From a virus, in IMG/VR virus record IMGVR_UViG_3300041809_000571, positions 51,841-115,840 of that record: a stretch of DNA of 64,000 nucleotides; one strand, given 5' to 3'. Every line of letters begins with the position of its first letter. Position 1 is the stretch's first letter. A model generated the notes under the pieces. It worked only from the letters and a program-made list of their open reading frames with translations, had not been told where the DNA came from and made no database searches. Below, piece by piece: positions 56,371 through 59,892 of the stretch. The position numbers and the translations under genes were made by a program.

Positions 56371-56445
56371 GGTGACTGTAACTCAGTGGCAGAGTGCCTG
56401 ACTGTGAATCAGGATACGGGGGTTCGATTCCCCTCAGTCACCCCA
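56371..56445 (+). tRNA. tRNA-His(GTG) with genomically encoded G-1
   Basis: G-1 + GTGACTG/CAGTCAC acceptor, C73, CCA; anticodon arm CCTGA-CTGTGAA-TCAGG. Confidence 0.75.
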
Positions 56446-56529
56446 AGTTTGGTGAGTGAACCCCACAGGGTACTTGGACTGGTCCGAGGGGGGCGGGGGC
56501 AGCCCGCTTCGTCATTCACCCCGATATAT

Positions 56530-56607
56530 GGTCCCGTAGCTCAGCCCGTATAGAGCAACTCCCTCCGAAGGAGAAGGTCGTCGGTTAAAATCCGACCGGG
56601 ACTTCCA
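56530..56607 (+). tRNA. tRNA-Arg(CCG)
   Basis: Acceptor GGTCCCG/CGGGACT; anticodon loop CTCCGAA; T-arm GTCGG-TTAAAAT-CCGAC; CCA. Confidence 0.6.
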
Positions 56608-56613
56608 GATTAG

Positions 56614-56689
56614 GCCCCTGTAGCTCAGTGGACAGAGCGTCCGGTTTCGACCCGGATGGTCGCAGGTCCGAATCCTGTCAGGGGTTCCA
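56614..56689 (+). tRNA. tRNA-Arg(TCG)
   Basis: Anticodon arm TCCGG-TTTCGAC-CCGGA; CCA. Confidence 0.7.
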
Positions 56690-56709
56690 AGATTGAACGA
56701 ATTAGATAT

Positions 56710-56784
56710 GCCCCCATGGTGTAGTGGAGAACGCACATCGCTACGAACGATGAGACAGGGGTTCGATTCCTCTTGGGGGTACCA
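56710..56784 (+). tRNA. tRNA-Arg(ACG)
   Basis: Anticodon arm CATCG-CTACGAA-CGATG; CCA. Confidence 0.7.
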
Positions 56785-56830
56785 GTTCTTGGTTACGCTG
56801 TTTAGTAACCAAATTATTGAATTCATAAGT

Positions 56831-57253
56831 ATGGACTCAATAATTAAACAATGCAGGTTTTGCGGCAAGGATTTTGAAGCCAAAAGAAGTGATAGGATTT
56901 TCTGCTCTAAGTTATGCGGTGTGAGAGACTGGGAGAGACGAAGCCCCAAAAGAGCAGCGAGACCTGAGCATGTAAGGCAATTTCGCCGCCGCATAAAGTT
57001 GAAGGCAATTGAATATAAAGGTGGAAAATGTGTAATCTGTGGGTACCACAGGTGCATAACCGCAATGAAGTTCCACCATTTAGACCCGAATACTAAGGAA
57101 TTTGGTATCAGCCGGTACGGGGTCACAAGGTCATGGGAGGCGGTTAAGGCTGAGTTGGATAAATGCATTCTCGTCTGTGGAAACTGCCATGATGAGATTC
57201 ACGAGGGAGTGACAATCATCCCTGAAGAAGTAAAGTTTAACGTTCAGGAGTAG
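56831..57253 (+). CDS. HNH homing endonuclease (paralog of 28964-29431)
   Basis: CRFCGKDF...CVICGYHRC...HHLDP...N...CGNCHDEIH; embedded between tRNA genes; stop overlaps tRNA-Asn. Confidence 0.7.
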   Translation: MDSIIKQCRFCGKDFEAKRSDRIFCSKLCGVRDWERRSPKRAARPEHVRQFRRRIKLKAIEYKGGKCVICGYHRCITAMKFHHLDPNTKEFGISRYGVTRSWEAVKAELDKCILVCGNCHDEIHEGVTIIPEEVKFNVQE

Positions 57254-57318
57254 CCAAGCGGTAAGGCAGCGCACTGTTAATGCGCCTATCGGGGGTTCGA
57301 GTCCCTTCTCCTGAGCCA
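57244..57318 (+). tRNA. tRNA-Asn(GTT)
   Basis: Acceptor TCAGGAG/CTCCTGA; anticodon arm GCGCA-CTGTTAA-TGCGC; CCA. Confidence 0.7.
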
Positions 57319-57408
57319 AAATTGTTAGTGCGATACGGGAGGCGAATACACCTCGGCTGGCGTCCTAGCCAGTGAATGTCCGTGCGAGTCGGGCGGCACT
57401 AGCCAGAT

Positions 57409-57484
57409 GCCCCGTTAGTTTAACGGTAAAACACTCGCCTTTTAAGCGATGAGAGTGTGGGTTCGATTCCCATGCGGGGTACCA
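57409..57484 (+). tRNA. tRNA-Lys(TTT)
   Basis: Anticodon loop CTTTTAA; T-arm GTGGG-TTCGATT-CCCAT; CCA; exact duplicate at 57575. Confidence 0.6.
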
Positions 57485-57491
57485 AAAATTT

Positions 57492-57571
57492 GGAGTCGTG
57501 ACGCAGATGTGGTTAAGCGTAGCCGCCTTTTAAGCGGACGGTCGTGGGCACCCAATCCACTGGCTCCACCA
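57492..57571 (+). pseudogene. tRNA-like element with Lys-type anticodon loop but atypical T-loop
   Basis: Anticodon loop CTTTTAA; T-stem with loop CACCCAA (no TTCRA); CCA; sits between two identical tRNA-Lys copies. Confidence 0.3.
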
Positions 57572-57574
57572 TAT

Positions 57575-57650
57575 GCCCCGTTAGTTTAACGGTAAAACAC
57601 TCGCCTTTTAAGCGATGAGAGTGTGGGTTCGATTCCCATGCGGGGTACCA
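57575..57650 (+). tRNA. tRNA-Lys(TTT) identical second copy
   Basis: 76/76 identical to 57409-57484. Confidence 0.6.
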
Positions 57651-57658
57651 AAGATTGT

Positions 57659-57735
57659 GCCGCCGTAACTCAACTGGACAGAGTACTCGGCTCTTACCCG
57701 AGGAGTTGGAGGTTCGAGTCCTCTCGGCGGTACCA
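57659..57735 (+). tRNA. tRNA-Lys(CTT)
   Basis: Anticodon arm CTCGG-CTCTTAC-CCGAG; CCA. Confidence 0.6.
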
Positions 57736-57740
57736 AATTT

Positions 57741-57816
57741 GGGTCGGTAGCTTAACTGGCAGAGCAGGGGCCTCTTAAGCCCAAGGTTGAGGGTTCGATT
57801 CCCTCCCGACCCACCA
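57741..57816 (+). tRNA. tRNA-Lys(CTT) second, different body
   Basis: Acceptor GGGTCGG/CCGACCC; anticodon loop CTCTTAA; CCA. Confidence 0.6.
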
Positions 57817-57864
57817 AGATGCTCTTGAGAGCGTATTATAGGACTTAACGTGCTCTCAAGAGAT

Positions 57865-58190: not shown

Positions 58191-58267
58191 GGCGGTGTAG
58201 CTCAGTTGGCTAGAGCGCTCGTCTCATAAGCGAGAGGTCGAAGGTTCGATGCCTTCCACCGCTACCA
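58191..58267 (+). tRNA. tRNA-Met/Ile2(CAT) elongator-type
   Basis: D-arm TAGCTCAGTTGGCTAGAGC as in elongator Met; anticodon loop CTCATAA; CCA. Confidence 0.6.
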
Positions 58268-58272
58268 ATGTT

Positions 58273-58476
58273 GCCCGTGTATGCGAACAGGCACAGCGGC
58301 GTCTAACGAAGGAGCGTCCCGGTAGGAGTGATTTGCGGAGGAACCGAAAAGGGCGGGATGCCCGGAAGCCGGGGACAATCCGGCTACCCTACGGGGTGTA
58401 GGGAATCACGTTATCGCCTATCGGAGCAACCCTCGCAAGGGGTTGTATGCGGGTTCGATTCCCGCCACGGGCACCA
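58273..58476 (+). tRNA. split tRNA-like gene: canonical 3' half (anticodon GCA / T-arm / CCA) with matching 5' acceptor strand ~130 nt upstream
   Basis: 3' half AACCC-TCGCAAG-GGGTT, GCGGG-TTCGATT-CCCGC, CACGGGC-A-CCA; only complement GCCCGTG-TA at 58273; intervening hairpin-rich sequence. Confidence 0.35.
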
Positions 58477-58675
58477 GTAATGGGCAGGAGGTTGGGGGTG
58501 TCTAGTCCCCCCTCGCCGATGGGGCGAGTAGCTCAATTAGAGTAACGTGTAGAGCACCTGCTTGTCCCCCAAGAAATTGGGGGACCGCTAATCGGAACCG
58601 CAGGCAGTTGCACAGCGGCAGCCCGGTAATCATCCGGGTGTAGCGAGTCGGCATACTGCGGTTTCCCGAGTTTAT

Positions 58676-58752
58676 CAGGGTGTAGCTCAGCCCGGTGGAG
58701 CACCAGTCTGGGGGACTGGGGGCCGCAGGTTCAAATCCTGCCATCCTGACCA
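58676..58752 (+). tRNA. tRNA-Pro(GGG)
   Basis: Anticodon arm CCAGT-CTGGGGG-ACTGG; CCA. Confidence 0.65.
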
Positions 58753-58757
58753 TTTTA

Positions 58758-58831
58758 CGGAGTGTAGCTGGACGGTCAAGCTCATGCTTTGGGAGCATGT
58801 GACCTCGGTTCGATTCCGAGCACTCCGACCA
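58758..58831 (+). tRNA. tRNA-Pro(TGG)
   Basis: Acceptor CGGAGTG/CACTCCG; anticodon arm CATGC-TTTGGGA-GCATG; CCA. Confidence 0.7.
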
Positions 58832-58853
58832 TTTTGAACGAAATGAATAGCCG

Positions 58854-58930
58854 TCAGGGTGTAGCTCAGCCCGGCAGAGCGCTGGTTTCGGGAACCAGAG
58901 GCCGAAGGTTCAAATCCTTTCATCCTGACC
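58854..58930 (+). tRNA. tRNA-Pro(CGG)
   Basis: Anticodon arm CTGGT-TTCGGGA-ACCAG; CCA. Confidence 0.65.
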
Positions 58931-58937
58931 AAGTTTA

Positions 58938-59011
58938 CATCGGCGTAGCTCAGCTAGAGAGCGCTCCCCATTAGGGGAGAGGTCAATGGTTCGATTCCAT
59001 TCGCCGGTTCC
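58938..59011 (+). pseudogene. tRNA-like element with 6-bp anticodon stem and 4-nt loop (non-decoding?)
   Basis: Good acceptor, D-arm and T-arm, CCA; anticodon region CTCCCC-ATTA-GGGGAG. Confidence 0.3.
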
Positions 59012-59120
59012 AAATCGTGGGGTAGAAGCCCGCTACCAGCCGATGACTCCATTTGAGTTGACAAGCAACAATCGGGAACAGCGTGGCCTTGGACGGTGCA
59101 ATGCCGTCCCCAAGTTTTAT

Positions 59121-59195
59121 CAGGGTGTAGCTCAGAGGAAGAGTCCCGGTTTCGGATACCGGTTGTCGGAGGTTCGAGTCCTCCCACCCTGACCA
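59121..59195 (+). tRNA. tRNA-Pro(CGG) second, different body
   Basis: Acceptor CAGGGTG/CACCCTG; anticodon arm CCGGT-TTCGGAT-ACCGG; CCA. Confidence 0.6.
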
Positions 59196-59202
59196 AGATT
59201 GT

Positions 59203-59276
59203 TCCGGGGTCGGCTAATGGTAGGCCGCTGCGCTCTGAACGCAGATATCGGGGTTCGAGTCCCTGCGCCGGAACCA
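59203..59276 (+). tRNA. tRNA-Gln(CTG)
   Basis: Anticodon arm CTGCG-CTCTGAA-CGCAG; CCA. Confidence 0.6.
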
Positions 59277-59331
59277 AGATTGATTCGTATGTCAGCTTTG
59301 CCCCGTAAGGGCTAAACGCTAATACGAATGT

Positions 59332-59407
59332 TCCGAGGTGGTGTAATTGGCAACATCCCTGATTCTGAATCAGAAGATTGGAGGTTCGAGTCCTCCCCTC
59401 GGAGCCA
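59332..59407 (+). tRNA. tRNA-Gln(CTG) second copy
   Basis: 76 nt with canonical numbering; acceptor TCCGAGG/CCTCGGA; anticodon loop TTCTGAA; CCA. Confidence 0.6.
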
Positions 59408-59739
59408 AGCTAGCCCGGAAAATGTGGGTTCGAGTCCCACCGGATAATCGCATGGAGTAGCCTTCCCGTCAGGCAGAACGCCCCCAGCGACCCGTCATTC
59501 AATCGGTAGGATACCGGGGATTGATTCAGGGAGAAGGTTGCGGGTTCGAGTCCCGTCGCCCCGCCATGCGGGGCGTAGCTCAATGGTAGAGCGTCTCCCA
59601 TGATGCAGCCGGAAAAACGGGGTTCGATTCCCCGTAGGTCATGGTGCAGCGTAGCCTCATGGTAGCTGTGACCAAGATAACCATGGTACCCTTGGTCTTG
59701 ACCTTCGTTTATTTGGATAAGACACCGGCGTGAGTTTTT

Positions 59740-59815
59740 GGGTGAGTCGTCCAATTGGATAGGACTGCGGTCTCCAAAACCGCCAATAGGGGTTCGAGTC
59801 CCTTCTCGCCTGCCA
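59740..59815 (+). tRNA. tRNA-Trp(CCA)
   Basis: Anticodon arm GCGGT-CTCCAAA-ACCGC; CCA. Confidence 0.65.
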
Positions 59816-59816
59816 T

Positions 59817-59892
59817 AGGAGCGTCGTATAGCGGCTATTATGCTGGTCTCCAAAACCATGCGACGGGGGTTCGAGTCCCTCCGCTCCTGCCA
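59817..59892 (+). tRNA. tRNA-Trp(CCA) second copy, weak D-arm
   Basis: Acceptor AGGAGCG/CGCTCCT; anticodon loop CTCCAAA; CCA. Confidence 0.5.

Follow-up and report, generated by a model that had tools for sequence, protein, structure and literature searches.

The 64,000-nucleotide (nt) stretch analyzed here (positions 51,841 to 115,840 of the IMG/VR virus record IMGVR_UViG_3300041809_000571; referred to as the window) carries a dense tRNA island at 56371-59892, in which several anticodons are each borne by two tRNA genes of different sequence. ARAGORN called 37 tRNA-type genes in the window, all on the plus strand, with 23 of them lying within 56372-59892 and three further tRNA-Arg genes following. 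The island contains 22 standard genes in 3.52 kb, or about 6 per kb, with intergenic spacers that are often just 1 to 8 nt long, and so qualifies as a tRNA array unit as defined in earlier work (20 or more tRNA genes, with no fewer than 2 per kb; PMC4758250). All but one of the standard island genes (21 of 22) scored above the gathering threshold of 29 bits for the Rfam tRNA model RF00005, with values of 49 to 70 bits; the exception was a CAT gene at 58105-58187. ARAGORN recovered every anticodon and gene that had been listed in a first-pass annotation of this DNA, including the three later Arg genes.

The island opens with tRNA-His(GTG) at 56371-56445 (69.8 bits), which ARAGORN placed at 56372-56445 and which has an encoded G-1 at 56371 and C73. 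It is followed by Arg(CCG) (56530-56607), Arg(TCG) (56614-56689), Arg(ACG) (56710-56784), which has no close orthologue in the relatives, and Asn(GTT) (57244-57318). The lysine block contains two canonical Lys(TTT) genes (57409-57484 and 57575-57650), found in this lineage only, and two Lys(CTT) genes (57659-57735 and 57741-57816). Next come two Phe(GAA) genes (57865-57940 and 57947-58021), three CAT genes (58028-58102, 58105-58187, and 58191-58267), Pro(GGG) (58676-58752), Pro(TGG) (58758-58831), two Pro(CGG) genes (58855-58931 and 59121-59195), two Gln(CTG) genes (59203-59276 and 59332-59407), and two Trp(CCA) genes (59740-59815 and 59817-59892). Pro(GGG) is an 82% identical paralogue of the first Pro(CGG). 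The genes past the island are Arg(TCT) (61489-61565) and two Arg(CCT) genes (61851-61926 and 63439-63517).

Conservation and turnover of the array

A protein encoded in the window maps to the ENA contig ERZ27249816 k141_1180871, which is 364,142 bp long. An 8.5-kb stretch recurs in independent assemblies from other samples (L006 and L007), and across three assemblies (loci L005, L006, and L007) there is a difference of 0 or 1 single-nucleotide polymorphism (SNP); given this agreement, the array, including its two identical Lys(TTT) genes, is not an assembly artifact. Relatives were found by using a 226-amino-acid protein encoded upstream of the island and a DNA pattern built from a Lys gene with a variant T loop. 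They represent four diverged lineages: L011 (79 kb); L014 with L018, L021, and L025 (157 to 207 kb); L016 with L015, L017, and L019 (IMG/VR viral contigs of 40 to 140 kb); and L027, L028, and L020. A viral setting is suggested by the IMG/VR viral contigs among the relatives, by PHROG matches in the HNH, helicase, and nucleotidyltransferase families, and by a ThyX gene (Pfam Thy1) in L011. None of the stretches examined showed a capsid or terminase gene, a megablast search with the island found no similar DNA in cultured phages, and two proteins flanking the island had no relatives among viral contigs.

Syntenic arrays are present in all four of the diverged lineages. The window, L014, and L016 share the order His, Arg(CCG, TCG, ACG), Asn, Lys, Phe, CAT, Pro, Gln, Trp, HNH, and Arg(TCT, CCT), and L011 and L027/L028 contain the same blocks in a partly rearranged order. 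Compared with L016, the window is a mosaic in which 56351-56694, 57651-57861, and 59381-59782 are 96 to 99% identical and the remainder is less than 80% identical or absent. An HNH homing-endonuclease open reading frame (ORF) lies inside the array at 56831-57253 on the plus strand (PHROG HNH endonuclease; E = 2.5e-28), its end overlapping tRNA-Asn by 10 nt, and a second HNH endonuclease gene at 60646-61200, also on the plus strand (Pfam HNH_5, E = 5.8e-15, and PHROG), is syntenic in all relatives. Between lineages, orthologous tRNA bodies can differ in their anticodon (Pro TGG/CGG, Arg CCT/ACG, and Arg TCG/TCT). Whole tRNA cassettes are inserted, lost, and exchanged, with junctions at tRNA boundaries, and anticodons shift within amino acid families; the two HNH endonucleases probably assist the cassette turnover. 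A precedent for inheritance driven by an endonuclease, cited in work on bacterial arrays (PMC8421152), is T4 SegB, through which the tRNA region of T4 is spread.

Two recurring types of same-anticodon tRNA genes

Same-anticodon doubles are found for Lys, Phe, Pro, Gln, Trp, and Arg and comprise twelve genes. All twelve scored above the Rfam gathering threshold (49 to 68 bits), and in the ARAGORN structures every member has an intact cloverleaf, a 7-nt anticodon loop, U33, a purine at position 37, and an encoded CCA. Partners in the window are 64 to 74% identical (0.64 to 0.74), apart from the two Lys(TTT) genes, which do not differ. The duplicates with divergent bodies reported in the first-pass annotation are therefore real and intact, and in no case did folding reveal a partner that was a pseudogene or carried another anticodon.

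Across lineages, most doubles split into two recurring types that are separated by the 1:72 pair or by position 73, 32, 37, or 38. Two conserved types were found for Lys(CTT), Gln(CTG), Arg(CCT), Phe, and Pro(CGG) and, in relatives, for Trp. Identity within a type is mostly 0.74 to 1.00 (0.65 to 0.81 for the A1:U72 type of Trp and 0.70 to 0.75 for two outlying Arg(CCT) type b members), and identity between types is mostly 0.57 to 0.79. In what follows, genes are labeled W for the window and L plus a number for other loci, followed by the gene start. Lys(CTT) type A has G1.U72 and C38 and comprises W57659, L016_5905, and L027_3247 (identity of 0.86 to 0.99), in contrast to type B, which has G1:C72 and A38 and comprises W57741, L011_13241, L014_12094, L016_5987, and L027_3419 (0.78 to 1.00); L016 and L027 thus carry both types. 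Arg(CCT) type a combines C32 with U73 and, in the window gene, a T loop of TTAGATT (W61851, L011, L014_15712, and L027_6289; 0.79 to 0.96), whereas type b combines U32 with A73 and includes W63439 and L027_6394 (0.92), with L014_15180 and L016_10759 more distant (0.64 to 0.75). For Pro(CGG), the first gene has G37 and the second has A37 and U38; W59121 groups with L027_2746, an orthologue (L027rc 2746) that is 88% identical and has the same loop. The window Gln(CTG) genes contrast C32 and A73 (59203) with U32 and G73 (59332); W59203 groups with L011_13453, L027_3590, and L014_12996, and the second type is present in L011, L016, and L027. Phe 57947, the first of the clade's types, has G37 and A73 and groups with L011_13370 and L027_3505, and Phe 57865, with A37 and G73, occurs in this lineage only. 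The Trp types are G1, represented by 59740 (G1.U72), and A1, represented by 59817 (A1:U72), and both are seen in relatives.

Each orthologue pair contains 1 to 7 double-sided compensatory stem changes and 0 to 2 broken pairs, which indicates that both partners are under selection as folded tRNAs where orthologues exist. These comparisons show the same-anticodon doubles to be old paralogues that, where orthologues exist, have been selected for tRNA structure.

Two of the loop features are unusual in themselves. The usual tRNA-Phe of the clade has G37 (loop CTGAAGA) as opposed to the A37 of bacteria, and the conserved second Pro(CGG) has A37 and U38 as opposed to G37. No link between the Phe G37 and the radical-SAM proteins was found, as those proteins are not TYW1-like.

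The two canonical Lys(TTT) genes are identical at 76 of 76 positions, as had been noted at first pass. The list made then lacked a third plus-strand tRNA-Lys(UUU) between them (57492-57571, with A73 and CCA), as well as the tRNA-shaped genes without an anticodon, the permuted Y RNA-like module, and the 206-nt tRNA-like RNA, all described below. The third Lys was found only by the relaxed mitochondrial mode of ARAGORN (-mt; score of 111), and the standard mode passes over it because its T loop is CACCCAA and not TTCRANY. This T-loop variant is present in all five lineages as five sequence variants, with a T loop of C[A/C]CCCAA and with conservation of the loop CTTTTAA (CCTTTAA in L011), A73, and CCA; the window gene differs from its L016 counterpart by 1 nt. 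Its thermodynamic minimum-free-energy (MFE) structure is not a cloverleaf (z = -0.26), so the case for a cloverleaf rests on covariation, with double-sided changes at 6 stem pairs and 96% of cells paired, compared with 32 to 49% in slid-register controls. Comparison with L016 identifies the canonical copies as inserts that directly flank the variant gene at tRNA boundaries. The nearest database relatives of the canonical Lys(TTT) are tRNA-Lys genes of T5-like Klebsiella phages (78 to 81% identical); no canonical Lys(TTT) was found in the four relative lineages sampled, and a scan of viral contigs gave no match to the exact sequence. A sensitive blastn search likewise found no cultured-phage match for the T-loop variant. 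Gln(TTG), which the first-pass annotation had reported missing despite the two Gln(CTG) genes, is indeed absent from the array and from the relatives, with five lineages sampled.

The three CAT genes had also been counted as duplicates at first pass; all three exist, and they belong to three different classes. The gene at 58028-58102 is of the initiator type, being 85% identical over 74 nt to the Escherichia coli tRNA-Met gene between argG and rimP (metY). It has A11:U24, an incomplete CCA, and an A1xA72 mismatch in place of a Watson-Crick 1:72 pair, a mismatch that is kept in the L011, L014, L016, and L027 orthologues; the E. coli initiator tRNA has C1xA72. The gene does not have three consecutive G:C pairs in its anticodon stem, where only G30:C40 and G31:C39 are present and 29:41 is A:U. 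The second CAT gene (58105-58187), at 28.1 bits, has a C1xA72 mismatch and a nested-hairpin D arm; its cloverleaf is the MFE structure (z = -3.0), and it is 86% identical to L014 12260. The third (58191-58267; 67.2 bits) is of the elongator type and has an orthologue at L011 14019. An Ile2 (lysidine) tRNA could not be assigned among the CAT genes.

Possible roles of the paired tRNAs

We interpret the segment as the core of a conserved, co-oriented tRNA array in an uncultured phage of about 364 kb, in which paired isoacceptors are kept because they are not interchangeable, and we put the probability of this interpretation at roughly 55%. Since their structure is selected and two types recur that differ at recognition-relevant positions, the doubles would be functional decoders maintained as nonequivalent versions. 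The array probably yields multi-tRNA precursors that are cut by host RNase P and 3'-end nucleases, and it would provide tRNAs to decode His, Arg, Asn, Lys, Phe, Met, Pro, Gln, and Trp codons. The types may be kept for differing recognition by tRNA-targeting or tRNA-modifying enzymes, and two bodies per anticodon would give the phage a pool that no single sequence-specific nuclease or failed modification can remove.

Such a paired pool may work alongside tRNA repair enzymes encoded in the same plus-strand gene block. These include a Pnkp-type kinase-phosphatase (8524-9645; PF13671 and PF25109), an Rnl1-type RNA ligase (10031-11302; PF09511), and, also from domain matches, a Thg1-like tRNA 3'-5' polymerase (41430-42200) and a RlaP nucleotidyltransferase (49706-50644), which as predicted from their domains are a tRNA repair toolkit. 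The kinase and phosphatase domains and the Rnl1-family ligase of a T4-type repair pair are all represented by domain matches. The matches are distant, with NCBIfam equivalog scores all below their cutoffs and the ligase at most 28% identical to Streptomyces phage ligases. According to Al-Shayeb et al. (2020, PMC7162821), some huge phages carry repair genes of this kind. The idea of the pool as insurance is in line with a published model of evasion (PMC10264068), with the presence of the repair genes, and with the way canonical Lys(UUU) and Gln(UUG) are avoided throughout the clade. Escape from host tRNA nucleases, which had been suggested at first pass, is plausible but unproven, its plausibility coming from the consistent differences at 32, 37, 38, 73, or 1:72 and from the tRNA repair genes nearby.

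As a phage tRNA array, the system is of a known kind, but its form is unusual in that it combines conserved paired isoacceptor types with an elbow-variant Lys(UUU) and several nondecoders shaped like tRNAs. T4 has 8 tRNAs and is not known to have same-anticodon doubles, and T4 Pnkp and Rnl1 repair tRNA-Lys that has been cut by PrrC. The present genome resembles that of T4 in combining Pnkp with an Rnl1-type ligase and in having a homing endonuclease within the tRNA cluster (SegB in T4, as cited in PMC8421152), but the endonucleases here are of the HNH type, whereas SegB is of the GIY-YIG type, and the Rnl1 and Pnkp matches are distant. Huge phages are similarly large environmental phage-like genomes with dozens of tRNAs of noncellular type and genes for ligating cleaved tRNAs; the survey describing them, in contrast, gave counts (up to 67 tRNAs per genome) without paired isoacceptor types, a T-loop-variant Lys, or anticodon-less genes (PMC7162821). 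In T5, the phage-encoded tRNA-Lys(UUU), which differs from the host version, is a noncleavable variant that defeats PARIS and is not cut by AriB (PMC11464382). Unlike T5, the present phage has three Lys(UUU) genes of two very different kinds and two Lys(CUU) types, and no PARIS or other nuclease is known for its host. Mycobacteriophages of cluster C1 have large arrays with variation in the anticodon loop outside the anticodon, changes predicted to block anticodon nucleases, and are modeled as avoiding the anticodons that nucleases target (van den Berg et al. 2023, PMC10264068), just as canonical Lys(UUU) and Gln(UUG) are missing across this clade; that study, however, rests on comparison with the host and does not describe conserved same-anticodon pairs. 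Bacterial L-arrays, such as the Anabaena trn operon, share the features of at least 20 co-oriented genes, a density of at least 2 per kb, and a homing endonuclease and have been proposed to serve as a backup tRNA pool under translational stress (PMC8421152; definition in PMC4758250). They are chromosomal or plasmid borne, whereas the present array is in a viral-type contig with IMG/VR viral relatives.

Several points weigh against the interpretation of the pairs as noninterchangeable decoders. An epimerase gene, searched as a clue to the host, returned just a 46% match in an unclassified metagenome-assembled genome, so the comparison covers phage tRNAs alone. No orthologue with an identity of at least 0.75 was found for the two Lys(TTT) genes, Arg(ACG) 56710, Phe 57865, Gln 59332, or either Trp, so that the evidence of selection comes from the remaining window genes. 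Promoter- and terminator-like sites were no more common than in shuffled sequence in consensus scans, which missed a stem with a 10-nt loop at 56333-56365. Codon use was taken from only 46 window genes (12,517 codons). Finally, diverged copies could be kept simply because divergence prevents recombinational loss.

That last point belongs to the main rival, gene dosage combined with neutral drift, under which diverged repeats resist recombinational deletion and the differences between partners are meaningless. We regard this explanation as possible, if doubtful. In the window genes, AAG makes up 70% of Lys codons, CAG 65% of Gln codons, and TTC 67% of Phe codons, and Pro is mostly encoded by CCC (44%) and CCG (32%); AAG, CAG, TTC, and CCG are thus all both common and served by doubled tRNAs; in addition, the identical Lys(TTT) pair indicates that plain duplication happens, and cassettes are frequently gained and lost. 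Against this, the rare AGG (70 codons) is served by two tRNAs and the common CGG (286), Asn (507), and His (337) codons by one each, and CAA (142) is served by none. Dosage alone is a poor fit because copy number does not track codon use, and the recurrence of these two types in several lineages, with matching differences at 32, 37, 38, 73, and 1:72, is not something that drift by itself would predict.

It is also conceivable, though improbable in our view, that the two types suit different aminoacyl-tRNA synthetases, which might come from alternative hosts or be phage encoded. Partners do differ at classical synthetase contact points, including A73/G73 in Gln, G73/A73 in Phe, U73/A73 in Arg(CCT), and G1/A1 in Trp, and huge phages may encode their own synthetases (PMC7162821). 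The Lys(CTT) and Pro(CGG) partners, on the other hand, share the discriminator base and differ only in the loop, and no synthetase was found among the subset of window proteins scanned or in the gene tables of L001, L005, and L029.

The proposal made at first pass, that one member of a pair is an identity-switched tRNA or a nondecoding decoy, found little support, and we consider it very unlikely. The anticodon itself is reportedly a major identity element in bacteria for Lys, Phe, Pro, Gln, Trp, and Arg. Inspection of the 1:72 pair, position 73, and the loop positions showed that isotype features are mostly kept: every Lys has A73, every Pro has C1:G72 with A73, the two Gln genes have U1:A72, the two Trp genes and Asn have G73, and His has G-1 with C73. 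Departures from this pattern are the G73 of Phe 57865, the A73 of Gln 59203, and the U73 seen in most Arg, and the first two of these, like the A37 of Pro(CGG) 59121 and the G37 of the clade Phe, break bacterial norms as a switched or decoy tRNA might. The anticodon loops are nevertheless standard, no body of a double clustered by sequence with another amino acid family, and the orthologues evolve by compensatory changes that keep all four stems. Least credible of all is the possibility that pseudogenes, or strain variants joined during assembly, account for the doubles, since in spite of the metagenomic origin of the assemblies and the one CAT gene just under the Rfam threshold, the folds are intact, the orthologues are conserved, three assemblies agree within 0 to 1 SNP, and partner identities of 64 to 74% are far beyond strain variation.

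Whether phages carry tRNAs to compensate for codon usage or to evade tRNA-cleaving defenses is debated, and the array offers a comparative handle on this question: conserved, intact types that differ where nucleases, modification enzymes, and synthetases read a tRNA are a testable prediction of the evasion model.

Nonstandard tRNA-like RNAs and neighboring genes

In addition to standard genes, the island contains several tRNA-like elements, all on the plus strand. A tRNA-shaped RNA without an anticodon (57326-57405), found by ARAGORN at a lowered threshold, has an 8-bp acceptor-like stem, a T-arm loop of TGCGAGT, and a CCA end; the loop in the anticodon-arm position is 6 nt long and variable among relatives, and a consensus fold across four lineages contains 9 compensatory pairs. 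The tRNA-shaped gene at 58939-59012 (Rfam tRNA, 46.7 bits; U73 and CCA), given the label "???" by ARAGORN, has, at the position of the anticodon loop, a 6-bp stem capped by an ATTA tetraloop (a loop of 4 to 6 nt) and has counterparts in L028 (TATG), L011 (GAAA), and L016 (GGTA) with scores of 33 to 52 bits. It was considered as the missing Gln(TTG) and rejected, given its loop (CATTAG or ATTA) and a body closest to Met-type tRNAs. A 206-nt tRNA-like RNA (58272-58477) has an 8-bp acceptor stem, a T arm, an ACCA end, and a large branched insert at the place of the anticodon arm; it is 89% conserved in L027/L028, where the consensus fold contains 5 compensatory pairs, and it matched no Rfam family.

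A permuted tRNA-like module at 59517-59615 (Rfam YrlA, 41.9 bits; E = 3.5e-8) resembles YrlA and Y RNAs (PMC4201824; RF02553) in its core of a T arm, an acceptor hairpin closed by CCAU, and a D arm within an enclosing stem; this fold is the MFE structure (z = -3.3), and the module is also present in L016. A second, weaker YrlA-like module lies at 58468-58590 (28.6 bits). Both scores are under the RF02553 gathering score of 69. Y RNAs are expected to be encoded within about 4 kb of a Ro60/Rsr gene, and tandem tRNA genes produce false YrlA matches (Chen et al. 2014, PMC4201824). The genes called around the module in the L005 gene table, over a span reaching from about 4.5 kb on its upstream side to 12.5 kb on its downstream side, include no TROVE (Ro60/Rsr) domain, and none was found among the larger window proteins scanned. 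In view of the subthreshold scores, the lack of a nearby Ro60/Rsr gene, and the caveat of tandem tRNAs, the Y RNA label is rejected for both modules for now.

Some spacers are themselves structured. A spacer at 56451-56520 that is cloverleaf-like, with a 9-bp stem closing three hairpins (z = -2.1), but is not a tRNA is 98% identical in L016. A 12-bp hairpin (57822-57862; z = -4.9) lies between the Lys and Phe blocks, a conserved long hairpin RNA (58592-58669; z = -3.9) has a homologous stretch in L027, and folding predicts a hairpin separating the two Gln(CTG) genes (59283-59329). The intron and tmRNA modes of ARAGORN gave nothing credible in the long spacers.

The look-alikes, comprising the variant Lys(UUU), the anticodon-less tRNA-shaped RNAs, the permuted Y RNA-like module, and the 206-nt RNA, may include decoys. 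That the array carries them as RNA decoys or inhibitors of host tRNA-targeting defense or modification enzymes, or as protected spare parts, is an unlikely proposal on present evidence; if it were true, they would be an RNA-based antidefense arsenal within a phage tRNA array. As decoy candidates, the anticodon-less tRNA-shaped genes, the variant Lys, and the Y RNA-like module are in any case better than the standard doubles. Standard finders miss the altered-T-loop Lys(UUU), which is present clade-wide, and give anticodon-less mimics only a "???" label, so that inventories of viral tRNAs can be in error, as can a claim that Lys(UUU), for instance, is missing.

Other features of the Arg genes and their neighbors recur in relatives. 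Of the 25 standard tRNAs of 56372-63517, 11 have a G1.U72 wobble at the top of the acceptor stem (all six Arg, both Lys(TTT), Lys(CTT) 57659, Trp 59740, and Met 58191), and both G1.U72 and the U73 of most Arg genes are kept in relatives. Four Arg tRNAs (56530-56607, 61851-61926, L011 12004, and L027rc 6289) have A rather than C at T-loop position 56 (TTAAAAT or TTAGATT) and D loops without a GG pair (..GTATA), which may represent a swapped tertiary 19:56 pair. ARAGORN found no stop-codon (suppressor or recoding) anticodon among the window tRNAs. L011 carries a CTA-anticodon tRNA of the amber suppressor type (15140-15215) directly past its HNH gene, at the place where the window and most relatives carry Arg(TCT). 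TAG is the rarest stop codon in the window, closing 6 of the 48 ORFs of at least 450 nt.

The first tRNA island of the window, at 28884-30397, contains only tRNAs with a long variable arm (Tyr, six Leu, including two with GAG, and three Ser), together with a 71-nt tRNA-shaped gene (29824-29894) that has a 6-nt loop (TTGAGT) and neither a long variable arm nor CCA. Neither the 9.7 kb upstream of the window nor the 8.4 kb downstream contains a third island, so any tRNAs for Ala, Gly, Val, Thr, Ile, Asp, Glu, and Cys must lie elsewhere. The start of the window is close to a strand switch, upstream of which (L029 1-8126) is a tRNA-free, minus-strand block of very large genes (1604, 618+, and 547 amino acids). 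Immediately 5' of tRNA-His, at 56333-56365, visual inspection identified a stem (CCCACCG/CGGTGGG, with the 10-nt loop) followed by TTTTTT that looks like an intrinsic terminator ending the preceding gene. On the minus strand, 30761-33202 encodes an 813-amino-acid homologue of the eukaryotic major vault protein (MVP; Pfam MVP_shoulder, 1.4e-21, and Vault_3) that matches MVP chains in the PDB over residues 445 to 708 (E = 1.6e-15), and the next large plus-strand gene (34045-35016) has a weak ADP-ribosyltransferase match. Homologues of MVP in phages and bacteria have already been described in preprints (10.1101/2023.11.10.566534 and 10.1101/872010).

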